NCBI GenBank assembly: GCA_902782445.1
Contig: CACZNC010000016.1
Span: forward strand, 13,295 to 77,294
Direction of reading: 5' to 3'
Origin: an uncultured Ruminococcus sp.
GTDB taxonomy: Bacteria > Bacillota > Clostridia > Oscillospirales > CAG-272
Length of the DNA: 64,000 nt
Under the pieces are notes generated by a model. The model searched no databases, was not told the DNA's origin, and saw only the letters and a list, made by a program, of their open reading frames with translations. Shown in pieces: positions 9,016-61,408 of this stretch (positions are counted from its first letter, which is position 1; every line of letters begins with the position of its first letter). The translations under genes were made by a program, and so were the position numbers.

Positions 9016-9572
9016 CATCCCTTCACGAAGGGAAATAAGGAATGAAACGCTCCGCGTTTCGGATTTAATGTCCCTACGCCGCGTCGACGCAGTCACGCAG
9101 ACGGGCAGCCGGGAGGGACCATCTCAGGCCGACGAGTGTTGCTTCGCAAACTCTGCCCCTCCCGAGGGTCCAATTTGCGGAGCAAATAGTTGGCCGTATG
9201 GCATAACCTTACCGCTCGTCCCGGAATCAAAATTCAATCTTGCATCCCACGTCCCCGCGCGGTCTCTGTTCGTGCAGCCGAAACATGCGCAGACAATGTC
9301 TGACGCACCGACGCAGTCGTGCTGGCCTCCGGCGGAGATTCAGGCGCGCATTGGGCACAGGACGCGCATCGCTGAATCGAAACCTGTTTCCGCATCCTCG
9401 CGCACATGCTCAGATTCAGACAGACATGCAGCCCGAACCGCGCGAACGAAAACCGTCCGGGCGAAACATGAAGTTTTGTCTGCGATTGTTCCACGTGAAA
9501 CAATTCTGAATTCATCATTCTGAATTCTGAATTTCATTCCTCATTCTACTAACCACTAGCCGCTAACTACTA
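9016..9572. repeat. R05 mosaic element: G(+) - parS - arm
   Basis: Separates the ECF sigma gene from the candidate anti-sigma ORF. Confidence 0.8.
9487..9502. promoter_or_regulatory. parS: parS-type 16-mer TGTTCCACGTGAAACA
   Basis: Exact read; R05. Confidence 0.65.
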
Positions 9573-11071: not shown

Positions 11072-11087
11072 TGTTTCACGTGAAACA
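11072..11087. promoter_or_regulatory. parS: parS-type 16-mer, perfect TGTTTCACGTGAAACA
   Basis: Exact read; R06. Confidence 0.65.
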
Positions 11088-11092
11088 AAACG

Positions 11093-11140
11093 CCGTCAGA
11101 GAAGAACTTTCGGGTTCGACCCTGACGGTTTTTGATTTTG
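11093..11140 (+). terminator. terminator-like hairpin inside repeat module I
   Basis: CCGTCAG...CTGACGG followed by TTTTTGATTTT. Lies between two parS sites after the plus-strand ORF ending at 10990. Confidence 0.55.
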
Positions 11141-11182
11141 TGAGACGATGCTAAAATCTGCGTGTCCTTCACGAAAACGGAA

Positions 11183-11198
11183 TGTTTCACGTGAAACA
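11183..11198. promoter_or_regulatory. parS: parS-type 16-mer, perfect TGTTTCACGTGAAACA
   Basis: Exact read; R06. Confidence 0.65.
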
Positions 11199-17576: not shown

Positions 17577-17592
17577 TGTTTCACGTGAAACA
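17577..17592. promoter_or_regulatory. parS: parS-type 16-mer, perfect TGTTTCACGTGAAACA
   Basis: Exact read; R08. Confidence 0.65.
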
Positions 17593-17597
17593 AAGAA

Positions 17598-17646
17598 CCG
17601 TCAGAGTGAACTTCAAGGTCCAACCCTGACGGTTTTTTTATTTTTG
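17598..17646 (+). terminator. terminator-like hairpin inside repeat module I
   Basis: CCGTCAG...CTGACGG followed by TTTTTTTATTTTT. Lies after comM and is homologous to 11093-11140. Confidence 0.6.
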
Positions 17647-17687
17647 AAACGATGCGGCTCTCTGCGTAACCTTCACGAAAAACCAAA

Positions 17688-17703
17688 TGTTTCACGTGAA
17701 ACA
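17688..17703. promoter_or_regulatory. parS: parS-type 16-mer, perfect TGTTTCACGTGAAACA
   Basis: Exact read; R08. Confidence 0.65.
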
Positions 17704-18036
17704 ATGCGGAAAAACGTGAAGAGAAGCCCCCTTTTCCATGCGCGCCTGAATCTCCGCCGCAAGGCCAGCACGACTGCGTCGGTGCGTAGGACATTGTCCT
17801 GCGCATGTTTCAGCTGCACCAACACAGACCGCGCGGGGTTGGCCTCATGTTCCGGCTCGTCCGTCTGAATCTGTCAAAGTCCGCGGGGATCGCTCCGTGT
17901 TTCAGCTTCAAGACCGCGCGACCTTTCCATCGTTGCGCAGCGGGCGGAGCGCTCCCATCAAAAAATCAAAATTCCAGCACCGCACTCCACCCCGCCGCAG
18001 GAAATCCCGCAGGAGAAAAACCATGAATCCAAAATC

Positions 18037-20082: not shown

Positions 20083-20391
20083 CGTTGAAGTCCTCCTTCG
20101 TGAATCGTGCATCGGGAAACGGTTTTCGTGGCCGGGGTTCGTTCGGGGTGGAATTTGCGTTTTTTGGATGGGAGCGCTTCGCTGGGATGGAAGGGACGCG
20201 CGGCCGTTCAGCTGAAAAATGGAGCGATCCCCGCGGGCTTTGACAGATTCAGACAGACGAGCCGGAATATGGAGACAACCCGGCTTGATCGCCGAAGTGC
20301 GGCCAAACCCGTGCACGGAACAAGTTCCGTGGGCTCCGCCAGTGTTTCAGGCGCGCATTGGAAAGGGGACGGAGTGCGGTTTTCCGCTCAA

Positions 20392-20407
20392 TGTTTCACG
20401 TGAAACA
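20392..20407. promoter_or_regulatory. parS: parS-type 16-mer, perfect TGTTTCACGTGAAACA
   Basis: Exact read; R09. Confidence 0.65.
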
Positions 20408-20645
20408 ATCGTGATTTCGGACGGCTGACCTCCGTCGTTTCGCTTCTCTTTGTCATTCTGAGGAGCCTGCGACGAAGAATCTCCGCACATGGAGGATGGG
20501 TTGGCCTTAACGTTGGGAGATTCTTCGCTGACAGCACAACTGCGTTGGTGCGCACGACCGCGTTGGTGCGCATGACTGTGTCGGTGCGTCAGAATGACAA
20601 CGTGAGGGCGGAATGGGACGTGCGTCGGCCGAAATTCCGGAAAAA

Positions 20646-20661
20646 TGTTTCACGTGAAACA
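20646..20661. promoter_or_regulatory. parS: parS-type 16-mer, perfect TGTTTCACGTGAAACA
   Basis: Exact read; R09. Confidence 0.65.
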
Positions 20662-20967
20662 TACGGCAGAAAGCCCGGACATTGTCCCCTTTATATGCGC
20701 GACTGAATCGCCGCCGCAAGGCCGCCGCATTGGCATGTCGTTAAGCTGTTTTTTTCGTGCATCCGGCCAATGCTAAAGACCGCGCGGGGTTGACGCCATG
20801 TTCAGCCCGTCAGAGACGCAATCGGCAGAAGTGCGCGGGGATTGGCTCAAACTCCGGCTGCAAGTCCGCGCGTCCGTCGCCGACTCCTTACCCATATAAT
20901 ATAAACTCAAATCCCGCAAATCACGCCCCTCGATGCGGACAAACACCCATTCCCTCCTCCCTCGTCT

Positions 20968-22167
20968 TCATTCTTTCAAAAACACAAACTCCTCGTCCTC
21001 CGGGGCGGGGGAATCCTTTTCCATTTCCATCCGGGGGGTGTGGGCGAGGTTGAGCAGGAAGCGGCTGAGCTCTCCGGCGGAGTCGGGCTTGGCGATCCCG
21101 CGGATGCAGGCGCGCATGGCGTCGAGGCGGACGTCGGACATGAGGAGCTGGTAGATGCACTCCTCGATGGGGACCGTGGCGGTGACGGCCATCGCGCATC
21201 CGTTGTTGAGCAGGAATTCGGTGTTGCGCTCCTCCTGCCCGGGGATGGGATTGACGATGATCATGGGCAGGGTCTTCGCCAGACTTTCGCTGGTGGTGAG
21301 GCCGCCGGGCTTTGTGATGATGCAGTCCGCCGCGTCCATCAGAAGGCTCACGTAGTCGACGAATCCGGTGACGAGCAGCTTTCGGCCTTTCGGGGGATTC
21401 GCGGCCAGCCTGTCGAGGGCGGATTTCGCCTCCTCGTTGCGGCCGGCGACGGCGATCAGCTGAAACTCCCGCTCCACGTCGAGCCCGAGGATCCGCGCGG
21501 CCAGGTCCTCCATATTGCCGTAGCCCATCGACCCGCCCATGAGCAGGAAGGTGGTGAGCCCCGGGTCCAGCCCCAGCTTTTTCCGCGCTTCGATCTTGTC
21601 CCCCGTCTCCCGGAATTTCGGGTTGATCGGGATGCCGAAGGGGAGGATCTGGGAATCGCGGAATCCCTTCGCCCTGGCCTGGGGGAGGAGGAGCTTGTCC
21701 GGCACGACGACATAATCGTTGGCGGTGTTGTCCTCCCAGAAGGGGTGGAAGGTGAAGTCCGTGAGGATGCCGACGGTGCGGTTCCCGATGAGGTTCCGCT
21801 TTTTCATCGCGTTCAGGAGCATCCCGGCGAAGGGGTGGGTGAAGACGACGGCGTCGTAATCCCCGGAGCGGATATAGTCCACGAGCTCCTTCGAGAGGGC
21901 GGCGGAGGCGAGGCGCATACTGTCGAAGCGTTCGCTGACGACCTTGCGCTTTTCCGCCAGCCTGTACCCGATGCGGTAGGCTCCCTGGGCCTTTTCGGTG
22001 ACCAGGAGATAGCCGTCGGCGATGAATTTCGCGAGCTCCGGAGAGATATACGCAAAGGTATCGAGGATCTCCGCCTCCGCGCCGCATTCTTCAAGATCTG
22101 CCCGGATCGCCTTCGCGGTGGAGTTGTGCCCCTCCCCCGCCGTGACGGAAAGAATGAGAAAGTTCAT
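20968..22167 (-). CDS. glycosyltransferase, MGDG-synthase/UgtP-like (GT28) family
   Basis: MNFLILSVTAGEGHNSTAKAI... N-terminal MGDG-synthase-like domain and a C-terminal GT-B domain (ITKPGGLTTSESL). Confidence 0.8.
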   Translation of the reverse strand: MNFLILSVTAGEGHNSTAKAIRADLEECGAEAEILDTFAYISPELAKFIADGYLLVTEKAQGAYRIGYRLAEKRKVVSERFDSMRLASAALSKELVDYIRSGDYDAVVFTHPFAGMLLNAMKKRNLIGNRTVGILTDFTFHPFWEDNTANDYVVVPDKLLLPQARAKGFRDSQILPFGIPINPKFRETGDKIEARKKLGLDPGLTTFLLMGGSMGYGNMEDLAARILGLDVEREFQLIAVAGRNEEAKSALDRLAANPPKGRKLLVTGFVDYVSLLMDAADCIITKPGGLTTSESLAKTLPMIIVNPIPGQEERNTEFLLNNGCAMAVTATVPIEECIYQLLMSDVRLDAMRACIRGIAKPDSAGELSRFLLNLAHTPRMEMEKDSPAPEDEEFVFLKE

Positions 22168-35328: not shown

Positions 35329-35344
35329 TGTTTCACGTGGAACA
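35329..35344. promoter_or_regulatory. parS: parS-type 16-mer TGTTTCACGTGGAACA
   Basis: Exact read; R17. Confidence 0.65.
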
Positions 35345-35458
35345 ACGGAGAACGGTTCTTCTAGCCACTAGCCGCTTTCAACTACGAACTCCTGATTCCT
35401 AAATCCTCACGCTAAACTGAAAAATGACCGCATCCTTTCGGAAGTACGGTCATTTTTA

Positions 35459-35548
35459 CGCAAAGGGTGGGATTCGAACCCACGGTCGGTTATTAGCCGA
35501 ACACACGATTTCCAGTCGTGCGCCTTAGACCAGCTCAGCCACCTTTGC
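35459..35548 (-). tRNA. tRNA-Ser (anticodon GGA), class II with a long variable arm
   Basis: Reverse complement GCAAAGGTGGCTGAGCTGGTCTAAGGCGCACGACTGGAAATCGTGT-GTTCGGCTAATAACCGAC-CGTGGGTTCGAATCCCACCCTTTGCG. 7-bp acceptor stem, anticodon loop CTGGAAA, GGTTCGAAT T-loop. No encoded CCA. Confidence 0.9.
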
Positions 35549-35617
35549 GTGTGCTGTGTCTACGGAGACACTGTTCACTTTTTCGCCGTTCCGGGGTATT
35601 CCCCGAACCGCTTTGTC

Positions 35618-35646
35618 ATTATATCACACGCCCGGGGATTTGTCAA
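35618..35646 (-). promoter_or_regulatory. sigma-A-type promoter of tRNA-Ser
   Basis: Minus strand TTGACA (35641-35646), 17 nt, TGaTATAAT (-10 at 35618-35623). About 60-70 nt leader before the tRNA. Confidence 0.55.
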
Positions 35647-35692
35647 GGGATTTTTCCGAGTTTTTTTGCCGCGGAGCCGGGAAAAGGAGGAA

Positions 35693-35832
35693 AGAAAATT
35701 CAGAATGCAGAATGAAGAACGCAGAATTGTTTCACGTGAAACAAGGAATCATTCCCAATTCCTCCTTCACTCCTAACTCCTCACTCCTGCCTCGTCCTCT
35801 ACTAGCTACTAGCTTCTATCCACTGGCAACTA
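35693..35832. repeat. R18 minimal element: arm - parS - arm
   Basis: Between the tRNA-Ser promoter and the lipoprotein stop. Confidence 0.75.
35728..35743. promoter_or_regulatory. parS: parS-type 16-mer, perfect TGTTTCACGTGAAACA
   Basis: Exact read; R18. Confidence 0.65.
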
Positions 35833-36465: not shown

Positions 36466-36807
36466 AGTTTTGAGTTTGGGTCAGAATGAAAATTGTTCGT
36501 TTCGGTATGGGGTGCGGCGCGGGATTTTCGGTTTTTTTAGTTCGGGATGACGTGCATCGCGGGATTATCGGGTTTTTATTTGGGAGCGCTTCGCTGGGAT
36601 TCAAGGGACGCGCGGGCTTGTATCGAAAACCGCTTCACTCTCTTCGCGCGCTTTTGCAGATTGCGGACATGACGAGCCGGAATATGGAGACAACCAGGCT
36701 TGATCGCCGAAGTACGGTTGAACCCGTGCGCAGAACAAGTTCTGCGGCCTCCGGCAGAAATTCAGGCGCGCATTGGAAGAGGGACAACGTGCAGTCGGTT
36801 GGGATGA

Positions 36808-36823
36808 TGTTTCACGTGAAACA
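36808..36823. promoter_or_regulatory. parS: parS-type 16-mer, perfect TGTTTCACGTGAAACA
   Basis: Exact read; R19. Confidence 0.65.
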
Positions 36824-37175
36824 ATCGTGATTTCGTTCTGTTTTTCCTGAAACGATTCTTCATTCAGGGTGATTATCCCTCGTCGTTTCGCTTCTCGCTG
36901 TCATTCTGAGGAGCCTGCGACGAAGAATCTTTGCGCTTCATTCTATAGCTGCAGTCATAGTCGGAGGATTCCCGGCGAGGATCGGACAGACCGGCCCTCT
37001 GATCTGTATTGTCTGACACTCGGAGGGGTTTGTCATGAGAACAATTTACCGACTAGAACTACGGCTTGATCTTTCCAGTGCGAAGATTCTTCGCTGACAG
37101 CACAACTGCGTTGGTGCGTCAGAATGACAACGTAGAGGCGGAACGGGATGTGCAGCGGCCGATTTTTCGGAGAAA

Positions 37176-37191
37176 TGTTTCACGTGAAACA
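37176..37191. promoter_or_regulatory. parS: parS-type 16-mer, perfect TGTTTCACGTGAAACA
   Basis: Exact read; R19. Confidence 0.65.
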
Positions 37192-37465
37192 ATGAGCCGG
37201 AAACTGCACATTGTCCCCCTTATATGCGCGCCTGAATCACCGCCGGAGGCCGCAGGATTTATCCTGCGCATGGGTTAGGCTGCACGTCGGCGATCAAGCC
37301 GGGTCAGCGCCATGTTCCGGCTCGTCCGGTTTGAACCGGAAGGGACCCGCGGGGGATCGGCCCATGATCCGGCTGAAAGTACGCGCGTCCTGCGCCTGCT
37401 CCTTTTCCCGATCATCAAACCGTCATTCCCCCGCCGGAACGAACCCCCGCCGCGGAATCCTTCAT

Positions 37466-40084: not shown

Positions 40085-40681
40085 GATCTTAGTTTAATCT
40101 CCTTCTGCTTAACGAGACGAAAGCCTCCGCCTTTCAAAACCAGCCATGACGGGCATTCCGGTGACTGCGTCGACCGATCCGTCGGCGGAGGAGGGTTTGT
40201 CCATCCCTTCACGAAGGGAAATAAGGTATGAAACGCTACGCGTTTCGGATTTAATGTCCCTGCGCGGGACGGGCGCCGGGAGGGACCATCTCAGGCCGAA
40301 GGCCCCTCCCGAGGGTCCCTTGGCCGTATGGCATAACTGTACAGCTCGTTCCGGAATCGAAATTCGACTGTATATCCCACGGTCCTCGCGCGGTCTTTGT
40401 TCGTACAGCTTAACCCGTGCACGGAACAAGTTCCGTGGGCTTCGCCGGCGTTTCAGGCGCGCATTGGGCACAGGGACGCGCGATTTTGAAGCTGAAACTG
40501 TTTCTCAGTCCTCGCGCACGGTTTTAGATTCAGAGGGACGTGCAGCCCGAACCGCGCGAACAAAAATCTGTTTGGGTGGAACATGGAGTTTTGGCGGCGA
40601 ATGTTTCACGTGAAACATCAGTCAATTCCTAACTCCTAACTCGTCCTCTGCTAGCCGCTAGCCGCTTCCAACTAGCAACTA
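40085..40681. repeat. R20 mosaic element: G(+) - parS - arm
   Basis: Between the gyrA start and the PfkB kinase stop. Confidence 0.8.
40602..40617. promoter_or_regulatory. parS: parS-type 16-mer, perfect TGTTTCACGTGAAACA
   Basis: Exact read; R20. Confidence 0.65.
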
Positions 40682-45486: not shown

Positions 45487-46764
45487 GTTATTCATTCTAA
45501 TGGGCATGACGAAGAACATAAACATGTCCTCGCGGTATTCTCTTTCCGACTGGGGGACGGGGGATTCAGGGCTATTGCCCAGGCGCTCGCCATAGACTTC
45601 GGGGTCGGGCTTCGCGTCGAGGAAGGTGGTCCCCTCCGCCGGTTCGATGACCGCGCCCATGCCGGGGGTGTTCAGCCGGATCCGCAGGCGGTCGCAGTCC
45701 GAGGGGCAGGCTTTCAGGGCTTCGAGGAGGTAGCGGCAGTTGAAGCCGATGGAGAGGTCCGCGCCGTCGATGGCAGCCGGGATCCGCTCGAACACCGACC
45801 CGCCGGCGGACACGGAGGACATGGAGACTTCCTTCCCCTTGAAATCCAGCTTCACGTAGGACCGCCCGTTCCCGCCGAGCTTGTCTTCGGTGACGATGGA
45901 CGCGCGTTCCACCGCCCCGAGCAGTTCCGCCCTTGAGACGAAGGCCTGAGTCATGTAGGTGGAGGGGAGGAGCCGTTCGTAGGCCATGTATTCCGCGTCG
46001 AGCATCCGGGTGAAGTAGTAGGTCCCGTCCACCCGGAAGACGATGTTCTTGCGGCCGATGATGAGTTCCGCGTCGTCCTCGGTGTCCCGGAGCATCTTCT
46101 GCAGTTCCCCGAGGAATCTGCCCGGGATGATCATTTCGCTCCGGTCGCCGTTTTCGGAGGAGGTGACTTCGCACTTCGCGGCGGAAAGGCGGTTCCCGTC
46201 GCATCCCACTGCCGTGAGCCAGCCCTCCCGGATGCGGAAGAGCCCGCCGTTGAAGGACACCCGCTGGTCGTTCTGGGCCACGGAGAAGACGGTCTCGGAG
46301 ATCAGGGCCTTCAGTTTGCGCTGGGGGACGAGGCATCTGCTCTCACCGACGAAGCGGGGCATGGAGGGGAAATCCTCGCCGGGAGCAGCGGTGATGGAGA
46401 ATTCCGAGAAGCCGCCCCGGACGGAGACCTTGCCCCGGTCGCCGATCTCGAGGGTGATCTCGCCGGAGGGGAGGGAGCGGACGATCTGCAGGATCTTGAC
46501 GGTGTTGATGACGTAGAGGCCCTCCTCCTCGATTTTGCAGGGGACGAGGGTGCGGAGCCCTTTTTCGAGGTCGAAGGCGGAGATGCGGCAGAGATCCCCG
46601 TCGATGCCTTCGCCGTCGTGTTCGCCGAGCTCGCCGAAGCGGGGATTCGGGGGACACTCGAAGAGGATGCCGTCGACGGACGCCATCGTGTTTTTGGTCT
46701 GCGCGACGGACACCGCGGGCGTGATCGCCGCCAGCAGGTCTTCGCGGTTGAAGGTGACTTTCAT
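45484..46764 (-). CDS. dnaN: DNA polymerase III beta sliding clamp
   Basis: 426 aa. MKVTFNREDLLAAITPAVSVAQTKNTM... ends ...FFVMPIRMNN. Downstream of dnaA-oriC. Confidence 0.93.
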   Translation of the reverse strand: MKVTFNREDLLAAITPAVSVAQTKNTMASVDGILFECPPNPRFGELGEHDGEGIDGDLCRISAFDLEKGLRTLVPCKIEEEGLYVINTVKILQIVRSLPSGEITLEIGDRGKVSVRGGFSEFSITAAPGEDFPSMPRFVGESRCLVPQRKLKALISETVFSVAQNDQRVSFNGGLFRIREGWLTAVGCDGNRLSAAKCEVTSSENGDRSEMIIPGRFLGELQKMLRDTEDDAELIIGRKNIVFRVDGTYYFTRMLDAEYMAYERLLPSTYMTQAFVSRAELLGAVERASIVTEDKLGGNGRSYVKLDFKGKEVSMSSVSAGGSVFERIPAAIDGADLSIGFNCRYLLEALKACPSDCDRLRIRLNTPGMGAVIEPAEGTTFLDAKPDPEVYGERLGNSPESPVPQSEREYREDMFMFFVMPIRMNN

Positions 46765-47151
46765 GTATGTTCTCCTTGGTTATGGTTCGTTGTCATGGGA
46801 GATTGAGAATGTATCTGAATTTCTCTCCCGGGGTTTTGGGGTGTGCGGGATTTGCGGTTTATATGATGGGAGCGCTTCGGTCCGGTTCGGGATGACGTGC
46901 GGTGCGGAATTATCGTTTTTTTATATGGGAGCGCTTCGCTGGGATGGAAGGGGTCGCGCGGACTTGAAGCCATAAAATGGAGCGATCCTCGCGGGATTCT
47001 TCAAATTCAAGCCGGACGAGCCTGATAGGGGAGGCAACCCCGCGCGGTCTCTGTTTTTGAAGCTGAAACATGCTCGGAGCAAGCTCCTCGGCCTTGCGGC
47101 GGTGATTCAGTCGCGCATGGAAGAGGGACAATGTATAGGCGGTCGGGATGA

Positions 47152-47167
47152 TGTTTCACGTGAAACA
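47152..47167. promoter_or_regulatory. parS: parS-type 16-mer, perfect TGTTTCACGTGAAACA
   Basis: Exact read; R24, dnaN side of oriC. Confidence 0.65.
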
Positions 47168-47381
47168 ATCGTGATTTCGTTCTGTTTTTCCTGAAACGAT
47201 TCTTTATTTTGGACGGCTGTCCCCCATCGTTCCGCTTCTCGTTGTCATTCTGAGGAGCCTGCGACGAAGAATCTCCGCACGTGAAGGATGGGTTGGCCTT
47301 GAAGCTGGGAGATTCTTCGCTGACAGCACAACTGCGTTGGAATGGGACGTGCAGCGTCCGATCTGACGGGAACGGCCCGCA

Positions 47382-47397
47382 TGTTTCACGTGAAACA
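47382..47397. promoter_or_regulatory. parS: parS-type 16-mer, perfect TGTTTCACGTGAAACA
   Basis: Exact read; R24. Confidence 0.65.
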
Positions 47398-48086
47398 TCC
47401 AGTCTTTCTCTTCACGTTGTCCCCTTTCCATGCGCGCCTGAATCTCTGCCGTAGGCCGCCGCATTGGCATATCGTTGTGCTATTCTTTTCGTGCATCCAG
47501 CCAATGCTGCAGACCGCGCGAGGTCAGCTTCATGTTCCGGCTCGTTCGGTCTGAATCGGAAACGACGCGCGGGGATTGCTCTGCGGCCCGGCTGAAAGTA
47601 CGCGCGTCCTGCGCCCAATCCTTTTCCGACTCATAAACCGAAAAATCCAAGTCGAATCGAAATCCCGCCCCGGACCTGACCCTCTGCTCCTCATTTTCTC
47701 CCTTCCGCGCGCAAGAGAATAGAAGAGAACAGATAAGATTAGATAAGAACAGCAGCAGGAGCAGTAGGCCCTGTGGGTCTTTGGGAAAACTCCGGGGGCT
47801 TTGCCGCCTGGCAGTTGACGGCAATTTCCGGTTCTCTCTGATAATTTTTCCTACATCAATTATAGCCGGACAGTCCGGCGTTCATGCGCGATTGTCTCCC
47901 GCCTGCCGGTTTTTTCCAGTTCCTGTGCCTTCCGGGGTGGGGAAATCCCTCCGGCTTTTTGGGAAAACCGCGGGGATCGGAGGCGTTTTCCTCTCCCGGA
48001 CCGACCCTTTCGGCGTCGAAATTCCGGTTTTCCGGGGCCCCGGGAGCGTCCGTTTTTCCACTCCCCGCCTGCGGAAACCTCCGGGC

Positions 48087-48095
48087 TGTGGAAAG
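48087..48095 (-). promoter_or_regulatory. DnaA box (TGTGGAAAG)
   Basis: Complement is CTTTCCACA, 7/9 to TTATCCACA. Confidence 0.5.
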
Positions 48096-48237
48096 AGGCG
48101 GTTCCCTTTTGCCGGGATTTTTCCGTGGACACCCTGCCCTTCCGGGTTTCTCCCCCCGGGACGTCGGACGCGCGGTCCTGCGGAGCTCCGATCAGTCCGG
48201 ATCCGGTTTTCGGATTTCCCGCCGGGTTTTCCGGGGG

Positions 48238-48246
48238 TTTTCCACA
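48238..48246 (+). promoter_or_regulatory. DnaA box (TTTTCCACA)
   Basis: 8/9 to TTATCCACA. Confidence 0.65.
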
Positions 48247-48353
48247 GGATTCGGGGCGGTTTTTCCGGGGGCGGGGAGGAAATCCGGGTTTTCGGCGTGC
48301 CGAGGGAGCCGTTTTCCGTTGGTTTTGCGTCAAGCGGGGGTGGAAAGCTCTGG

Positions 48354-48362
48354 TTTTCCACA
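48354..48362 (+). promoter_or_regulatory. DnaA box (TTTTCCACA)
   Basis: 8/9 match. Forms an inverted pair with the box at 48379, 16 bp away. Confidence 0.65.
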
Positions 48363-48378
48363 GAAGTTTTCCCCTGAT

Positions 48379-48387
48379 TGTGGAAAA
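48379..48387 (-). promoter_or_regulatory. DnaA box (TGTGGAAAA)
   Basis: Complement of TTTTCCACA, 8/9. Confidence 0.65.
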
Positions 48388-48442
48388 GTCCGAGGTGTTT
48401 TTTGCCCCGTTTTTCCGTCCGGATTTCGGCTTTGGGCACCGG

Positions 48443-48451
48443 TGTGGAAAA
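48443..48451 (-). promoter_or_regulatory. DnaA box (TGTGGAAAA)
   Basis: Complement of TTTTCCACA, 8/9. Confidence 0.65.
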
Positions 48452-48836
48452 ATATGGGGAAGTCAGCCGGTTTCCGCGGGGGAATGAGGTGACGGTTTTA
48501 TGTTATGGTTGTAATGGCTGATTCGGGATATTGTCTCGGTGCGGGATTATCGGGTTTTTGTATGGGATCGCTTCGCTGGAATGGAAGGGACGCGCGTTAC
48601 TGTATCGAAAACCTGTTTTTTCTCCTCGCGCGCTTTGACAGATTCTGACATGACGAGCCTGAGAATGGAGCCAACCTCGCGCGGTCTTCGCACGTGCAGC
48701 CGAAACATGCGCAGACAAGTCTGCGGCCTTGCGGCGGTGATTCAGGCGCGCATTCGGCGTTGGACGCGTGTTCGTGCGGCGGGATCTGTTTGTTCATCCT
48801 CGCGCGGATCAAGAAAGACAATGGTTTTCTTGGCTT

Positions 48837-48852
48837 TGTTTCACGTGAAACA
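48837..48852. promoter_or_regulatory. parS: parS-type 16-mer, perfect TGTTTCACGTGAAACA
   Basis: Exact read; R25, dnaA side of oriC. Confidence 0.65.
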
Positions 48853-49112
48853 ATCGCGGTTTCGGACGGCTGACCCTCATCGTTCCGCTTCTCGTTGTCA
48901 TTCTGAGGAGCCTGCGACGAAGAATCTCCGCACGTGTAGGATGGGTTGGCCTTGAAGTTGGGAGATTCTTCGCTGACAGCACAACTGCGTTGGTGCGCAC
49001 GACTGCGTCGGTGCGTCAGAATGACAAAGTGAGGACGAAACGGGACGTGCGGCGGCCTGTCTGACGGAGAAAAGCAGGATCGTTTCACAGAAACACCGGC
49101 AGAAAAAGGAAT

Positions 49113-49128
49113 TGTTTCACGTGAAACA
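49113..49128. promoter_or_regulatory. parS: parS-type 16-mer, perfect TGTTTCACGTGAAACA
   Basis: Exact read; R25. A decayed remnant CGTTTCACAGAAACA starts at 49081. Confidence 0.65.
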
Positions 49129-49431
49129 TCACCCCAACCGCCCAGACTCTGTCCCCTTTCCATGCGCGCCTGAATCACCGCCGTGAGGCCACGGGACTTG
49201 TCCCGTGCATGTTTCAGTTGCACGAACACAGACCGCGCGGGGAGAACGCCATGTTCCGCCCGTCATGTCTGAATCGGCGGAAGTGCGCGGGGACCGCATC
49301 CTGTTCCGGCTTCCCGTCCGCGCGTCCTGTGCCCACTCCTTTTCCCTCAAATAAAACCGCCATCTTTCCGCCGCGCTCAACCCCGATGCGGAACCACCTC
49401 CGCGCTCGGCCCATACAGAGAATACAAACCT

Positions 49432-51309
49432 TTATCCTCTCCGTATCTCCTTGGATATCTGCGCGACCCTCGCCTCAAACACGGCGTCTGACGCGAGCTC
49501 CGCCTCCACCTTCGCGATGTTCGAATGCACCGTGGAGTGGTCCCGGTAGAAAAATACGCCGATCTGGGGATAGGACGCGCCGGTGACGGTCCGCACCAGG
49601 TACATCGACACGTTCCGGGCGGTCTGGATGTTCTTCTTTCTGTCCTTGCCGAGAATGTCGTCCGGGGTGACGGAGTAGTGGGCCGCCACCTTCGCGATGA
49701 TCCGCGCCACCGTGTCCGTCAGCGGCTCCGTGGATCGGATGTACTCCGGGACGGTCTTCAAAACCATCTCCATCGTGACCGGGTCCCCGGAGATCATGTG
49801 CTTCATGGCGAGCTTCTTCACGACGCCCTCCAGCTGGCGAATGTTCTCCTGCAGGTTCGTGGCGAGGAAGTCGATGACGTCCGTCGGGACTTCCACGTGG
49901 TTCTGGCTGATCTTCTCTTTGAGGATCGCCATGCGGAGCTCGTAGTCCGGCGGCTGGATGTCGACAAGCAGTCCGGCTTCGAAGCGGCTGCGGATCCGGC
50001 TTTCGAGGGAGGTGAGCTCCTTCGGGGGCCTGTCCGAGGTGATGACGATCTGCTTCCTGTCCTCGTAGAGGGCGTCGAAGGTGTGGAAGAATTCGGTCTG
50101 GGTGCTCTCCTTCCCGGCGATGAACTGGATATCGTCGATGAGGAGCATGTCGGCCTTGCGGTATTTGTCGCGGAAGGCCTGGTTCCGGTCCCGCCGGATC
50201 GCCTCGATCATCTGGTTCATGAACTCCTCGCCCTTGACGTAGACGATCTTTAACCCGGGATCCCGCTTCATGGCCCGGTTGGCGATGGCGTACATCAGGT
50301 GGGTCTTGCCGAGGCCCGAGGGACCCCAGATAAAGAGGGGATTGATGGACATGCCCACGTTGTCGGCGACGCTGAGGGCCGCCGCGTGAGCCATCTGATT
50401 GGACCGGCCCACGATGAAGGTCTCGAAGGTGTAGTCGCGGCCGGGACCGTTGAGCAGCCGGTTCTGGAGATCGGGGGAGGAGGGGGGCACGGTCCGGGAG
50501 GGGGTGGGGATGCCGCCGCTGAACCCGGCGTTCTCCCGGCTTGCCGTCTGCCGTCCGTCGTCGGAGGGCGCGGGATTTTCTCTCCCTCCGTCAACTCCGG
50601 CGGGATTTTTGTAAACGGGTCTCGAGGCGGATCCGGGGACGGAGGGCCTGCTTGCGCCGGAAGAGGTCGGGGCTCCCGTGTGCCCCACGATGCGGTAGAC
50701 CGAGGGGGCGCCGATGTTCACGTAATCCGGCTCCCGTTCGGCGTCCTCGTCGGGCCAGCCCGTTCCGTTCCCCTCCGCGGTGGACCGTATGGCGTCGATA
50801 TCCCCCACGCCGGTCTGCCAGCCCTCGTCCCCGTCGTCCTCGCCGTCGTCGTCACGCTCGTCATACTGACGGGAAAGCGGGTCGGGGAGCTGTCCGGGAA
50901 TCCGCAGGCTGTCGCGGTTCCGGGGGAGGGTGAAGGGGACGGAGGGATCCGGGTCCGCCGCGGGATCCGCGTTCTGTCCGCCGGTACGGGGTTTTGGAAG
51001 CACGGCCCCGTCGGCGGTGAGGATGGTGCGGAGGGCGGGGTCGACCGTGACGGCGATCTCCGGCCGGTAGCCGAGGACTTCTTCGAGGGAGTCCGCGATG
51101 AGGTCGGAATAGCGCTCCGATACGATGCCGCACTTCATTTTGGTCTCGCAGGCGAACACGGCCCGTTCCGCGTCCAAAAGCTCCAGCCGCAGCCTGCCGA
51201 ACCAGAGCTGATAGGACTGCTTCGTCCCGGTATACCGTTCCCGCATGACCTCGTCGAGGGCCGCCCGGATCTCGTCCAGCCCGTCGGAGGCCTGTTTTTC
51301 TCTATTCAT
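49432..51309 (-). CDS. dnaA: chromosomal replication initiator protein DnaA (very long domain II)
   Basis: 625 aa. Domain I, a ~195-aa P/G/D-rich linker, AAA+ NPLFIWGPSGLGKTHLMYAI, and domain IV ...RKKNIQTARNVSMYLVR...SYPQIGVFFYRDHSTVH. Confidence 0.97.
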   Translation of the reverse strand: MNREKQASDGLDEIRAALDEVMRERYTGTKQSYQLWFGRLRLELLDAERAVFACETKMKCGIVSERYSDLIADSLEEVLGYRPEIAVTVDPALRTILTADGAVLPKPRTGGQNADPAADPDPSVPFTLPRNRDSLRIPGQLPDPLSRQYDERDDDGEDDGDEGWQTGVGDIDAIRSTAEGNGTGWPDEDAEREPDYVNIGAPSVYRIVGHTGAPTSSGASRPSVPGSASRPVYKNPAGVDGGRENPAPSDDGRQTASRENAGFSGGIPTPSRTVPPSSPDLQNRLLNGPGRDYTFETFIVGRSNQMAHAAALSVADNVGMSINPLFIWGPSGLGKTHLMYAIANRAMKRDPGLKIVYVKGEEFMNQMIEAIRRDRNQAFRDKYRKADMLLIDDIQFIAGKESTQTEFFHTFDALYEDRKQIVITSDRPPKELTSLESRIRSRFEAGLLVDIQPPDYELRMAILKEKISQNHVEVPTDVIDFLATNLQENIRQLEGVVKKLAMKHMISGDPVTMEMVLKTVPEYIRSTEPLTDTVARIIAKVAAHYSVTPDDILGKDRKKNIQTARNVSMYLVRTVTGASYPQIGVFFYRDHSTVHSNIAKVEAELASDAVFEARVAQISKEIRRG

Positions 51310-51469: not shown

Positions 51470-51904
51470 GTGGCTAGTGGTTAGTAGAACCGTCAGCATG
51501 AAATGAGGAATGAGGAGTGAAATTCAGAATTCAGAATTAAGAATTGTTTCACGTGAAACATCATGTCTTCCCCCGCACATTGTCCCCTTTCCATGCGCGC
51601 CTGAATCTCTGCCGGAGGCCGCAGGATTTATCCTGCGCATGTTTCGGCTGCACTTCGGCGATCAAGCCGGGTTGGCTCCATGTTCCGGCTCGTCAAATCC
51701 GCAATCGGTATAAGCGCGCGAAGAGCGTGAAGCGGTTTTTGATACAGAACCGCGCGTCCTATCCATTCCAGCGAAGCGCTCCCATATAAAAAACTATAAT
51801 CCCGCACCCCACCCCATCCCGCCGCGGACAACAAAAAAATCCCTCCCCACAGAAGATCCCCGTGAGGAGGAACGGTTATCGGCGATCAGCAGTCCCGGAA
51901 AGAT
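51470..51904. repeat. R26 mosaic element: arm - parS - F(+)
   Basis: Starts about 90 bp upstream of the dnaA promoter and ends at the SBP stop. Confidence 0.8.
51545..51560. promoter_or_regulatory. parS: parS-type 16-mer, perfect TGTTTCACGTGAAACA
   Basis: Exact read; R26. Confidence 0.65.
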
Positions 51905-53401: not shown

Positions 53402-53832
53402 GAAAAAGTCCTTTCGTTATATTCGGAGAGTGCCGTATAGGAATATTATAGCGGAAAAATCGGCTGAATGTGTGGATTTTTTGTAACAATGAGCGGGAGG
53501 AGGGAGGATCTGCGGCGGGATGACGTGCGGGGCTTTCGTTTTATTTGATGGGAGCGCTTCGGTCCGGTTCGGGATGACGTGCGGTGCAGGATTATCGGTT
53601 TTTATATGGGAGCGCTTCGCTGGGATGGAAGGGGACGCGCGTTTCTGTATCGAAAAACGGTTCACTGTCTTCGCGCGCTTTTGAAGATTGCGGACGGAAC
53701 GAGCCGGAACATGGAGCCAACCCGGCTTGATCGCCGAAGTACGGTTGAACCCGTGCGCAGAACAAGTTCTGCGGCCTCCGGCAGAGATTCAGGCGCGCAT
53801 GTAAAGGGGACAATGTGCGGAGGAAGACGTGA

Positions 53833-53848
53833 TGTTTCACGTGAAACA
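53833..53848. promoter_or_regulatory. parS: parS-type 16-mer, perfect TGTTTCACGTGAAACA
   Basis: Exact read; R27. Confidence 0.65.
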
Positions 53849-54132
53849 ATCGTGATTTCGTTCTGTTTCTCCCGAAACGATTCTTCATTCCGTGCGGCTG
53901 ACCCCGTCGTTTCGCTTCTCTTTGTCATTCTGAGGAGCCTGCGACGAAGAATCTCCGCACGTGGAGGATGGGTTGGCCCTGAAGCTGGGAGATTCTTCAC
54001 TGATAGCACGACTGCGTCGGTGCGCACGACTGCGTTGGTGCGTCAGAATGACAAGCTGGGGGCGGGATGGGACGTGCAGCGGCAGATTTGACGGAAAAAG
54101 CCTGCGGAAATTCCGACGCACGAAAACCATTC

Positions 54133-54148
54133 TGTTTCACGTGAAACA
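54133..54148. promoter_or_regulatory. parS: parS-type 16-mer, perfect TGTTTCACGTGAAACA
   Basis: Exact read; R27. Confidence 0.65.
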
Positions 54149-54193
54149 AAAAACCCCGCCCGGGCGGACGAAAAATCCACCCCGGACGGTCGA

Positions 54194-54209
54194 AGTTTCA
54201 CGTGAAACA
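54194..54209. promoter_or_regulatory. parS: parS-like variant AGTTTCACGTGAAACA (1 mismatch)
   Basis: Exact read; R27. Confidence 0.5.
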
Positions 54210-54309
54210 ATTCTTAATTCATCATTCTGAATTCTGAATTTTTAACTCATTCCTCCCTCCTCATTCCTAATTCCCAACGGTTCTACTAACCACTAGCCGC
54301 TAACCACTT

Positions 54310-58879: not shown

Positions 58880-59384
58880 TTAGTTGTTAGTTGGAAGTGG
58901 CTAGTGGCTAGTAGAGCGAAGAGGGAAGAGGGAATTCAGAATTCAGAATGAAGAATTGTTTCACGTGAAACATCCGCCGCCAAAACTCTATGTTTCGCCC
59001 GGACAGATTTTCGATCCCGCGGTTCAGCCTGCACGCGGATCTGAATCTGAATATGTGCGCGAGGACGGAGAAACAGTTTCAGCTTTCCATCCGCGCGTCC
59101 CATGTAATGCGCGCCTGAATCTCCGCCGTAAGGCCGCAGGACTTGTCCTGCGCATGTTTCGGCTGCACGAGCAGAGACCGCGCGAGGACGTGGGATGCAC
59201 AGTCGATTTTCGATTCAGGGACGAGCTGTAAGTTTATGCCATACGGCCAAGGGACCCGCACAGGGGGCCTTCGGCCTGAGATGGTCCCCCGTGCCGCCGT
59301 CCCGCGCAGGGACATAAATATACCGGTCGACGCAGTCACCGGGACCGTCGTTGCTGATTTCGAAAGGCGGAGTCTTTCGTTCGC
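58880..59384. repeat. R29 mosaic element: arm - parS - G(-)
   Basis: Between the hydrolase start and the oxidoreductase stop. Confidence 0.8.
58957..58972. promoter_or_regulatory. parS: parS-type 16-mer, perfect TGTTTCACGTGAAACA
   Basis: Exact read; R29. Confidence 0.65.
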
Positions 59385-61029: not shown

Positions 61030-61135
61030 GGAATTGGGAGGCCGTCGGCCGGGAGGTTCCGTACAGCGGCGGGCAGATTGTTTCACGTGAAACAAACGCA
61101 AATTCTGCATTCTTAATTCTTAATTCTGAATTCCC
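61013..61135. repeat. R30 minimal element: arm - parS - arm
   Basis: Overlaps the stop of the zinc-ribbon ORF. Confidence 0.75.
61079..61094. promoter_or_regulatory. parS: parS-type 16-mer, perfect TGTTTCACGTGAAACA
   Basis: Exact read; R30. Confidence 0.65.
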
Positions 61136-61179
61136 TCGCGTTCTCCCTTCTCCCTTGACTTCCCGGCCGAAATTCCCTC

Positions 61180-61209
61180 TTGACATCCCGGCCCTGTGTG
61201 TGGTATAAT
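61180..61209 (+). promoter_or_regulatory. sigma-A-type promoter of tRNA-CAT
   Basis: TTGACA (61180-61185), 18 nt, TGgTATAAT (-10 at 61204-61209). The tRNA 5' end is 10 nt downstream. Confidence 0.65.
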
Positions 61210-61218
61210 AGCTCACGC

Positions 61219-61295
61219 GGGCCATTAGCTCAGTTGGTCAGAGCTCCCGGCTCATAACCGGTTGGTCCTGGGTTCAAGTCCCCGATGGCCCACCA
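61219..61295 (+). tRNA. tRNA with CAT anticodon, most like tRNA-Ile2 (lysidine type); elongator Met not excluded
   Basis: GGGCCATTAGCTCAGTTGGTCAGAGCTCCCGGCTCATAACCGGTTGGTCCTGGGTTCAAGTCCCCGATGGCCCACCA. Cloverleaf with an encoded CCA. It resembles the Bacillus Ile-CAU tRNA. Flanked by a strong promoter and a terminator. Confidence 0.9.
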
Positions 61296-61296
61296 G

Positions 61297-61332
61297 AAAA
61301 ACAGACTCCCGAAAGAGTCTGTTTTTGATTTT
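61297..61332 (+). terminator. intrinsic terminator after tRNA-CAT
   Basis: AAAAACAGACTC, CCGAAA loop, GAGTCTGTTTTT, then GATTTT. Confidence 0.8.
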
Positions 61333-61392
61333 CCGCAGGTTTTGCGGGCGGGCCGGGTTTGAATTCAGAATTCAGAATGATGAATTAAGAAT

Positions 61393-61408
61393 TGTTTCAC
61401 GTGAAACA
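61393..61408. promoter_or_regulatory. parS: parS-type 16-mer, perfect TGTTTCACGTGAAACA
   Basis: Exact read; R31. Confidence 0.65.

Follow-up and report, generated by a model that had tools for sequence, protein, structure and literature searches.

A chromosome normally carries from a few to a few dozen parS sites, which lie near the replication origin: Bacillus subtilis has about 10, and Streptomyces and Myxococcus have about 20 or more in the origin region. Their position gives ParB and SMC their positional information, and work in Bacillus, Caulobacter, and Pseudomonas has established that ectopic parS disturbs chromosome organization. In our study, we analyzed a 64-kb stretch of DNA (hereafter, the window), identified as the dnaA–oriC–dnaN–gyrB–gyrA segment from an uncultured lineage of rumen Clostridia, which contains 49 parS sites where 0.01 would be expected by chance. 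As in the clustered arrays of Bacillus, Streptomyces, and Myxococcus, and as in the Pseudarthrobacter locus L005 (9 parS-like sites in 8 kb, adjoining a ParB-family ORF), several canonical parS lie near oriC; however, their density (49 in 64 kb) is far higher, as is the likely total, of the order of 100 or more; this total, like the chromosomal distribution, is derived from fragmented metagenome contigs and summed k-mer depth. In addition, the sites described here lie inside mobile or modular repeats that also occur on other contigs and on a prophage-like contig. In the Noc–NBS system of Firmicutes (PMC7383237), too, a protein of the ParB family has many palindromic sites dispersed along the chromosome, whereas the dispersed sites in our lineage are parS and not NBS.

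The repeats themselves can be compared with three kinds of described elements. One of them, which we call E, resembles MITEs such as the Neisseria Correia and the pneumococcal BOX and RUP elements in being small, non-coding, hairpin-folding, high-copy, and intergenic, and in its presence or absence between strains with sharp boundaries; as in the BOX elements (boxB), the number of its internal sub-repeats is variable. It differs from MITEs in being bounded by parS, a host centromere site, instead of a short arbitrary target duplication, and we know of no cognate transposase or parent IS for it. The BIMEs/REP of enterobacteria are also mosaic intergenic arrays, driven by recombination, in which a short palindrome alternates with a few motifs; in our case, however, the hub is a 16-bp perfect ParB-type palindrome and not an imperfect REP of 35–40 bp, the accompanying modules are much longer (about 300 bp for module F), and no RAYT-type gene was seen among the genes examined in the window and the metagenome loci. 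Finally, integration into a repeated host palindrome, which we infer for E, is the habit of IS1397 and ISKpn1 (into REP/BIME) and of the IS110-family element IS621 (into REP), but these are autonomous and enzyme-encoding, while E is non-autonomous and its insertion would restore two copies of the target.

Architecture of the composite spacers

The initial annotation had described four spacers as complete units with the order F(−)–parS–E–parS–F(+), and we found this layout at all four places (R09, R19, R24, and R25), each with two perfect parS hubs. R27 is a variant, as had been proposed, with three parS-type sites and an A module on its right side, and the neighborhood of dnaA, dnaN, and gyrA had been correctly recognized. 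The features are the following:

20083..20391, minus strand: R09 left arm, F subtype b (alignments; parS-proximal end at 20391)
20392..20407, no strand: R09 left hub, perfect parS TGTTTCACGTGAAACA
20408..20645, plus strand: R09 E module, short-left form, a MITE-like foldback (fold and alignment of 56 copies)
20534..20587, plus strand: three tandem 18-nt units (GCACAACTGCGTTGGTGC) on the 3' side of the R09 E hairpin
20646..20661, no strand: R09 right hub, perfect parS
20662..20967, plus strand: R09 right arm, F subtype a (alignments and subtype call)
36466..37465, no strand: R19 composite, upstream of a 211-aa gene and downstream of gyrA; F-b(−) 36466–36807, parS 36808, E 36824–37175, parS 37176, F-a(+) 37192–37465
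46765..47700, no strand: R24 composite, between dnaN and the oriC core; F-b(−) 46765–47151, parS 47152, E 47168–47381, parS 47382, F-a(+) 47398–47700
48050..48455, no strand: cluster of DnaA-box-like sites (TTTTCCACA / TGTGGAAA; sequence scan)
48500..49431, no strand: R25 composite, between the oriC core and the 3' end of dnaA; Fx-b(−) 48500–48836, parS 48837, E 48853–49112, parS 49113, F-a(+) 49129–49431
51545..51560, no strand: single parS between A and F
53402..54309, no strand: R27 variant, parS-type sites at 53833, 54133, and 54194; F-b(−) 53402–53832, parS 53833, E 53849–54132, parS 54133, and on the right side a 45-bp hairpin, the parS-like site 54194 (1 mismatch), and then an A module

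In R09, the distal end of the left arm adjoins the start codon (20082) of a DUF5107/TPR gene, and that of the right arm adjoins the stop of an MGDG-synthase-like gene (20968–22167, minus strand). The E hairpin quoted in the initial annotation was located at 20452–20605 together with its three 18-nt tandem units, the count of which differs among E copies; the core helices are GTCATTCTGA/TCAGAATGAC and CGAAGAATCTCC/GGAGATTCTTCG. The E of R19 has about 170 bp of other sequence in place of the apical loop, and this apical region measures about 169 bp in the window and about 69 bp in the strain locus L042. The E of R24 has a 27-bp deletion relative to the near-identical scaffold L001, by which the TCAGAATGAC arm is gone, and the E of R25 contains a degenerate parS-like site. 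Arms similar to those of R25, joined via a single parS without E, are present in contigs of runs X2 and X4 (about 90% identity); these contigs may come from a site paralogous to R25. The cluster at 48050–48455 is likely the oriC core, which lies between dnaA and dnaN with R24 and R25 on either side, and the ORF at 47884–48492 in this region has neither coding-type GC3 bias nor a Pfam match. No protein-family signal or ORF was detected in the composite spacers, and the R09 composite was unmatched by BLAST in plasmid and phage collections.

parS sites and their flanking modules

Thirty-six of the window sites are perfect copies of TGTTTCACGTGAAACA, a 16-bp palindrome, and the other 13 have one mismatch; no site with two or three mismatches is present in the window. 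They match the chromosomal parS consensus of Bacillus, TGTTNCACGTGAAACA, and in 10 of the 13 imperfect sites the mismatch falls at position 1, 5, 12, or 16, positions that vary in this consensus. This near invariance, against a drift of 20–30% in the flanks, suggests that the site is needed, either for a ParB-type protein or for whatever machinery mobilizes the elements.

Repeat modules of a few kinds (A, F, T, and E) surround almost every parS of the window. When the window and 62 metagenome loci are taken together, 503 parS flanks sort into few classes: A (113), F (99), E-right (66), E-left (62), T (56), and Fx (33), with 45 singletons. Their adjacency follows a simple grammar, X–parS–Y or, when E is present, X–parS–E–parS–Y, so that the spacers form an extragenic mosaic of a short palindrome and few motifs of the BIME type. 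Modules A, F, and T attach to parS by a constant polarity, the parS-proximal end being always the same, and two F modules that flank one parS are therefore mutually inverted. E is flanked by two F in 21 of its 56 copies and by two A in 12, and most spacers hold combinations other than the full composite. An intact parS adjoins every copy of module F. The module occurs in L036 and is lacking at the corresponding window site (61644), and its orthologous copies differ by segment replacement (mosaic exchange).

The system extends beyond the window: we identified 151 further parS on 334 kb of contigs that are non-syntenic with it, and copies also turned up in a sister lineage as well as on the prophage-like contig. 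Of three matches to the parS+F pattern in a scan of genome contigs, two were due to chance, and the real one was a 2-kb contig from a Clostridia MAG of sheep rumen. In syntenic relatives (about 60% DnaA identity), the repeat modules are absent, the 14–22 kb loci have 0–2 parS each, and the spacers measure 5–394 bp; the genome architecture found here is unusual by comparison, with 32% intergenic DNA and a median spacer of about 500 bp, and both values are explained by the parS-centered mobile repeat system.

We assign a probability of roughly 60% to the reading that the composites are modular, non-coding intergenic repeats accumulated around the 16-bp parS, and not a giant hairpin under selection. 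Nearly every parS is a hub for A, F, and T modules of fixed polarity, and F–parS–E–parS–F is best read as E nested inside an F–parS–F hub. Each E insertion at the parS dyad center would double the local number of sites, while F would spread by copying together with its parS and by gene conversion. We also considered, and rejected, propagation of the whole composite en bloc as a fixed unit. The left arms of the window composites are of F subtype b and the right arms of subtype a, and at other loci the a/b order varies relative to the orientation of E (21 composites). Besides, the composites are not the near-identical copies that the initial annotation had supposed, since between them the arms are only 77–81% identical (aligned columns) and the E modules 87–94%.

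The E element

E is a non-coding foldback of 164–352 bp, represented by 56 copies in the window and the 62 metagenome loci, 13 of them in the window itself. Its two halves pair along nearly their full length (consensus fold of the 56 copies, −110.7 kcal/mol), which agrees with the long imperfect hairpin proposed for the center of the composites; the parS–E–parS segment folds at −126 kcal/mol (z = −6.9). A complete canonical parS adjoins each end of every E copy. Comparison of the window with the strain L006 revealed two reciprocal differences, each of which consists of exactly E and one parS at a single pre-existing parS. First, the E of R27 and one parS (283 bp between the aligned blocks) are absent from L006, which has a single parS there; second, L006 has E and a second parS at the single-parS site of the window at 51545..51560. 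The unit gained or lost is exactly E with one parS, and a complete parS is left on each side. It is important to note that these strain polymorphisms are explained equally well by insertion and by a precise loss through recombination between the two parS that flank E.

The parS that flank E could be a duplication of up to 16–17 bp, or half-site termini inserted at the dyad center. Variant bases of these sites are more frequent in the E-adjacent half than in the far half (18 vs 7, two-sided binomial p ~0.04), and the variant AGTTTCAC recurs at three non-orthologous E copies; from this statistically weak pattern we infer that E may carry half-parS termini and integrate at the dyad center. In three DNA runs, the depth of the E core was about 150–340x the single-copy depth, which points to a copy number of E in the order of 100 or more per genome, although co-occurring strains or species could inflate this value.

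E is small, non-coding, foldback, and dispersed in many copies, with a polymorphism of precise boundaries, as in MITEs; another feature of such elements, a cognate transposase or autonomous element, did not appear, as about 630 kb of sequence yielded no transposase or recombinase and no autonomous element that has E-type ends. Pairs of E-left and E-right lie at most 352 bp apart in all but one interval. This exception, of 1467 bp in L031, was rejected as an autonomous E: it holds a tRNA and a 208-aa ORF and adjoins a degenerate parS.

A more specific proposal, which we hold only tentatively and at somewhat under even odds, is that non-autonomous mobile elements (E, perhaps also the short parS–T–parS unit and F) use parS as their integration target and junction and regenerate it. 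parS, normally a rare site restricted to the origin, would thus have reached hundreds of copies, nearly perfect, spread across the intergenic DNA, also around oriC and in a prophage. If this were true, the host either tolerates the spread or has rewired its ParB/Noc/SMC system around it, and the lineage would be, to our knowledge, the first known case of a selfish repeat that targets a centromere site; we found no relevant literature joining parS to a MITE, repeat, or transposable element. In this lineage, a foldback element whose gain or loss takes place exactly at parS carries the sites and doubles them, and 49 parS in 64 kb, with probably hundreds per genome, would constitute a natural experiment on the parS load that a chromosome can tolerate.

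ParB-type proteins and host selection

A different origin, which we consider unlikely, is a centromere or insulator array selected by the host. Many ParB sites would benefit the lineage, for example as a very large partition or SMC-loading zone or as boundaries of transcription units; parS and its flanks would have spread by homologous recombination or gene conversion, and E, F, A, and T would be co-opted spacers. Selection of this kind is consistent with the sharp conservation of parS next to flanks that are 70–80% alike, with mismatches that fall mainly at variable positions of the consensus, and with the paired parS sites that flank transcription units, tRNA genes, and terminators. The mosaic gene conversion among orthologous F copies and the enclosure of the oriC core by R24 and R25 also fit. 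However, the modules are also found outside the window, on other contigs that total at least 334 kb and on the prophage-like one, 0–2 sites suffice in close relatives, and the anatomy, copy number, and precise presence or absence of E are those of a mobile foldback element.

The search for the protein that such an array would serve argues in the same direction. A box II regex and phmmer over about 630 kb recovered no parS-type ParB gene, only a Noc-type paralogue, and parAB is absent from its typical position after rnpA–yidC–jag–trmE. The paralogue is encoded downstream of rsmG in this lineage and is without the canonical GERR box. Because it carries Noc-type specificity residues (Q173, K179, R184, and R201), it is not predicted to read parS; a scan of the window for NBS gave zero sites.

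Structure at the RNA level

A function at the RNA level appears less probable still. The spacers would be transcribed with their flanking genes, and the F hairpins would act in UTRs, where they could affect stability, termination, or processing. Within a full composite, long-range pairing of antisense F-a with sense F-b would enclose the E hairpin. The two small hairpins of F, with GNRA or CUUG-type tetraloops, do show compensatory changes: there are 71 compensatory cells against 16.9 ± 9.3 in shuffled alignments (0 of 500 shuffles reach 71), and 91% of the cells are paired, against 24–49% when the partners are slid. Pairs of the G-U type in F on the parS-to-gene strand correspond to A-C mismatches on the other strand, and in E the G-U cells exceed the A-C cells on one strand (356 vs 174). 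The composites contain no sigma-70-type promoter (promoter scan) and no excess of terminators (terminator scan), which is compatible with read-through, and rumen metatranscriptomes include short contigs that match E and F.

These contigs are nevertheless short, unstranded, and multi-copy, so that they are no proof of independent transcription, and could be contaminating DNA. The covariation is limited to the two hairpins, helix 3 (4 of 6 pairs) and helix 2, and is absent from the long-range F helices, which are invariant and hence uninformative. Moreover, F lies both upstream and downstream of genes, running away from parS with no constant sense relative to the gene, and an orientation of E tied to gene direction was not supported (16 vs 9, not significant). 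No Rfam family matched, F included: the gathering scan of the whole window returned two tRNAs only, and a permissive E-value scan of 46700–49500 gave matches at chance level only.

Arm symmetry and assembly checks

The initial annotation had read the composites as giant nested palindromes whose persistence pointed to protection or to a function of the extruded form. A functional DNA palindrome that extrudes or folds and is protected from SbcCD and replication slippage is, in our assessment, very improbable. The arms are indeed inverted homologous F modules (local alignment scores of 46–74 vs at most 19 when shuffled), which gives the composites the several hundred bp of inverted homologous sequence seen in SbcCD substrates and cruciform-forming palindromes, and the fold of the 885-nt unit as ssDNA is below that of shuffles in energy (z = −4.8). 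But SbcCD attacks long near-perfect palindromes, and this near-perfect symmetry is missing: the arms are only 69–81% complementary, contain indels, and lie 230–370 bp apart, and therefore do not form a palindrome of the SbcCD type. Complementarity is 70.6% in R09, 80.6% over 124 nt in R19, 69.2% in R24, and 74.4% over 172 nt in R25, with none between the R27 arms; outside parS, no near-perfect, short-loop inverted repeat of R09 has arms longer than 23 nt (78%). The difference in arm subtypes, the arrangement that varies across loci, the other module combinations in most spacers, and the presence of E itself, which varies between strains, all speak against such a functional palindrome.

The SbcCD paradox does not arise, and no protection or extruded-form function is required. 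The symmetry of the composites is a product of module polarity and nesting, not of cruciform selection, because F joins parS with a fixed polarity and E nests into the intervening parS. What looks like a giant palindrome can arise as a by-product of polar modules that surround a palindromic hub, and arm identity should be measured before cruciform biology is invoked. The instability that had been expected was borne out on a small scale, as two of the three indels between two otherwise identical assemblies, over 22 kb, are short deletions inside E hairpins.

An assembly artefact, with repeats collapsed or chimerically joined, can be dismissed: contigs of this organism do often end within repeats (L002, L019, and the 2–3 kb contigs that carry noc) and three small indels separate the window from L001, but the order and junctions of the composites are repeated across independent assemblies and samples, and the strain differences are clean, module-sized, and reciprocal. 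The architecture of the window composites recurs in a second assembly (L002), in L001, and in a strain of about 95% identity from another metagenome (L006/L017, L021, and L042), and the R09 gene-to-F junctions were recovered in contigs of three further DNA runs.

Genomic setting of the composites

The window matches scaffolds from cattle-rumen metagenomes and is present in sheep and bovine gut runs, and the named DnaA homologues belong to MAGs assigned to Clostridia, Ruminococcaceae or Eubacteriales. It holds housekeeping genes (rnpA, yidD, clpX, clpP, tig, mreB, mreC, maf, zapA, gyrA, pfkB, gyrB, dnaN and dnaA) and one whose product has a SpoIIE domain; neither a transposase nor a recombinase nor a ParB was found among its genes. 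Intergenic sequence makes up 32% of it, with a spacer median of about 500 bp. The features considered here are the following.

R09, 20083-20967: composite F(-)-parS-E-parS-F(+)
R19, 36466-37465: the same composite
R24, 46765-47700: the same composite
R25, 48500-49431: the same composite
R27, 53402-54309: variant with three parS sites
47701-48499 (0.8 kb), between dnaA and dnaN: DnaA-box-like cluster (TTTTCCACA/TGTGGAAA) and AT-rich stretches
11072-11198 and 17577-17703: 127-bp parS-hairpin-parS units, in which the hairpin (GCCGTCAGAG...CCCTGACGG) resembles a terminator and precedes a T-run
40085-40330, 9047-9300 and 59272-59370: G+C-rich repeated module (…GGCCTGAGATGGTCCC…CCGCGCAGGGACATTAAATCCGAAACGCG…TTCCCTTCG.GAAGGGAT…)

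The stretch at 47701-48499 lacks coding-type composition, although public gene calls put an ORF of 188-202 aa there; it is probably the oriC core, directly bracketed by R24 and R25. All genes from 11.5 to 64 kb lie on the minus strand, also past dnaA and oriC, and an oriC at ~48 kb would put ~12 kb head-on to a rightward fork. The coding strand is C-rich throughout positions 4000-64000; GC skew therefore tracks the gene strand and shows no origin switch.

Modules around a conserved parS

Our study identified 49 parS-like sites in the window against 0.01 expected: 36 perfect, 13 with one mismatch (10 of them at positions 1, 5, 12 and 16) and none with two or three. Since the sequence surrounding these near-invariant sites is only 70-80% alike, parS itself is either kept or continually renewed. 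A metagenome scan for the parS+F pattern yielded 62 loci (413 kb, 205 parS sites), the non-syntenic part of which comprises 334 kb and 151 sites. When the 503 flanks of all parS sites were clustered, nearly all fell into a few classes.

Module classes from the clustering of 503 parS flanks
Class; description; flanks
A; sequence of low complexity, heptad-like (ATTCTGA...); 113
F; module of ~300 bp; 99
Fx; F in extended form; 33
T; hairpin resembling a terminator; 56
E-left; E left end; 62
E-right; E right end; 66
Singletons; without relatives; 45

Every module turns the same end toward parS, so that all point outward. Across parS, A meets T, F or another A, and F meets T; where E is present, one module faces E-left and another faces E-right. 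Read outward from parS, the strand is rich in C and poor in G on both sides (GC skew -0.24 in the first 100 nt). Module A shows a periodicity of ~7 nt (ATTCTGA, CTCCTCA, CTAGCCA), and CTGAAT/ATTCAG, common to the A, E and F modules, occurs at 4.0 per kb in spacers and 0.16 per kb in genes.

The 56 copies of E (164-352 bp) all have parS at both ends, and their consensus fold is a long hairpin. Between the window and strain L006 (DNA identity 94-98%) we found two reciprocal differences: R27 holds parS-E-parS in the window and a single parS in L006, whereas the spacer between the gene for a 498-aa protein and dnaA holds parS-E-parS in L006 and a lone parS (51545) in the window. Both differences are exactly E plus one parS, with no other duplication, which shows that E and one parS are gained or lost precisely at parS; insertion and precise excision both fit. 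Variant parS bases number 18 in the E-proximal half and 7 in the distal half, and the variant AGTTTCAC is repeated at three non-orthologous E copies; this faintly suggests that E may carry the adjacent parS half-sites, and would loosely fit insertion of E at the centre of the parS dyad. In three DNA runs, k-mers of the E core reach 150-340 times the depth of flanking single-copy genes, a ratio that co-occurring strains could inflate. In addition, a prophage-like IMG/VR contig (L075, metagenome 3300032007), with a terminase large subunit and an S24/HTH repressor, carries in its spacers one whole A-parS-E-parS composite and another of which only A-parS-E lies before the contig edge. E thus appears abundant and extends beyond the origin.

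We read the composites, with a probability of about 0.6, as repeat modules, nested, polar and in part mobile, that surround a conserved parS hub, with E as a parS-tied foldback element. The nearest known systems are modular MITEs, BIMEs and insertion sequences with REP palindromes as their targets; unlike those, the target and junction here is a chromosomal centromere site, regenerated and multiplied. Literature searches returned no description of a centromere site in this role, and we know of no such case.

An unlikely but conceivable alternative is an array of parS sites selected by the host and spread via gene conversion. Gene conversion among copies is indeed indicated, because orthologous F copies in two strains have internal segments replaced. 

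Relatives with ~60% DnaA identity are syntenic from the GFO/IDH oxidoreductase gene through gyrA; their spacers are 5-394 bp long, with 0-2 parS per locus, and resemble none of the modules. The parS in their pfkB-gyrA spacer is the counterpart of window 40602, which is now flanked by an A module and, opposite it, by a T/F-like module. In a sister lineage (GC 0.66), F-parS-T is already present downstream of the noc gene; the system is therefore older than the species, yet restricted to a subgroup.

The F module and a possible RNA role

Alignment A2 of 86 F copies shows invariant blocks alternating with variable segments. Two small hairpins keep their pairing through two-sided changes: the first pairs as GCAGGA/UCCUGC, GCAGAA/UUCUGC, ACGGGA/UCCCGU or GGAG/CUCC, with loops UUUA or CUUG, and the second swaps GCC/GGC for GGC/GCC, with loops GCAA, GUGA or GUAA. 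Compensatory cells number 71 against 16.9 +/- 9.3 in shuffles (0/500 reach this value), and 91% of hairpin cells are paired against 24-49% with slid partners. G-U pairs favour the strand running outward from parS; the long-range helices are invariant and hence uninformative. F has no Rfam match, and no sigma-70-type promoter was found in it. An RNA-level role for F or for the entire composite is considered unlikely.

The presence of F is itself polymorphic, since L036 has F beside a parS where the window (61644) has none. Of the two distal subtypes, b forms the left arm and a the right arm in all four window composites, whereas across the 21 composites from all loci the a/b order relative to E varies, so assembly of the composite is combinatorial. 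The tandem 18-nt unit of E (GCACGACTGCGTCGGTGC) is also inserted in the covarying hairpin of ~14 F copies (window 17760-17790; in A2, for example, L028, L029, L053 and L056), so E and F have sub-modules in common.

Symmetry, stability and assembly of the composites

The initial annotation had taken the composites for giant nested inverted repeats, several near-identical, whose expected instability under SbcCD suggested protection or a function of the folded form. Their architecture was borne out: R09, R19, R24 and R25 each have two perfect TGTTTCACGTGAAACA sites spaced 230-370 bp apart, the E hairpin lies at 20452-20605 and includes three tandem 18-nt units, and parS-E-parS folds as a single long imperfect hairpin (-126 kcal/mol, z = -6.9). 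The inverted arms are homologous (local alignment scores 46-74 against at most 19 in shuffles), but pairwise alignments, which contain indels, give low complementarity: 70.6% in R09, 80.6% over 124 nt in R19, 69.2% in R24 and 74.4% over 172 nt in R25, with no pairing found between the R27 arms. Nor are the copies near-identical, as arms are 77-81% identical between composites in aligned columns and E 87-94%. For SbcCD and cruciform biology, near-perfect symmetry and little or no spacer are decisive, and the composites show neither. As single-stranded DNA the entire composite folds better than shuffles (z = -4.8), which is to be expected wherever diverged inverted homologues flank a genuine hairpin. 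The concern over instability has a small-scale echo: across 22 kb the window and scaffold L001 differ by three indels alone, and two of these are deletions inside E hairpins. In R24, 27 bp between short GG repeats are missing, and with them one arm of the helix; the other deletion takes 9 bp from an apical loop. Both may reflect either true slippage or a difference between assemblers. It is very improbable that the composite is a functional giant DNA palindrome. Mis-assembly can be dismissed with near certainty, since the composites recur in a second assembly (L002), in L001 and in a strain of ~95% identity sampled in a rumen metagenome of the JGI (L006/L017, L021, L042), and the R09 gene-to-F junctions are present in contigs from three further DNA runs.

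ParB-family proteins

No parS-type ParB was found in ~630 kb of sequence, and parAB is absent from its usual neighbourhood downstream of rnpA-yidD-yidC-jag-trmE. Short contigs with the same modules encode rsmG followed by a 317-aa ParB-family protein with a strong HTH domain and a weak ParB_N match (rsmG-noc contigs L043, L076, L077 and L078, with L079 listed alongside). Its DNA-contact residues Q173, K179, R184 and R201 follow the Noc pattern as defined by Jalal et al. (PMC7383237), so it is not predicted to read parS. Where more distant relatives have the GERR box, the Noc-type protein of this lineage has GE(L/I)R and that of the sister lineage GEKR. The noc gene is followed by an A-parS-E-parS-Fx composite; no NBS occurs in the window. 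The pattern scan also gave a chance match in Pseudarthrobacter chlorophenolicus contig9 (L005), where 9 parS-like sites within 8 kb adjoin a ParB-family ORF with a GERRWRA motif; the cluster resembles those usual in actinobacteria and offers a useful contrast.

Other repeats and insertions

The tRNA genes Ser-GGA (35329-35743) and Met-CAT (61079-61408) each lie between two parS-like sites, three of the four perfect and 35329 with one mismatch, so that each transcription unit is bracketed like a cassette. Both inner flanks of the tRNA-Met unit are inverted ATTCTGAAT-type repeats; in the tRNA-Ser unit this type occurs only beside 35728, the other flank being a ACGGAGAACGG/CTAGCCACT-type module. 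L031 has the same bracketing around another tRNA, whose promoter is a perfect TTGACA-N17-TATAAT. The 127-bp units look like a second, smaller element with parS at both ends, like E. The G+C-rich module, which closely precedes the start codons of gyrA and other genes, may be a common leader or a further element; its copy at 59319 differs from L001 and L017 by an indel of 84-86 bp. Finally, one strain has a hairpin-rich insertion of 265 bp (L023, 9919-10186) in the 14-bp yidC-jag spacer, with empty counterparts at L074 11997/11998 and L070 4283/4284; it lacks parS, is unrelated to E or F, and represents a further small insertion element of this organism.
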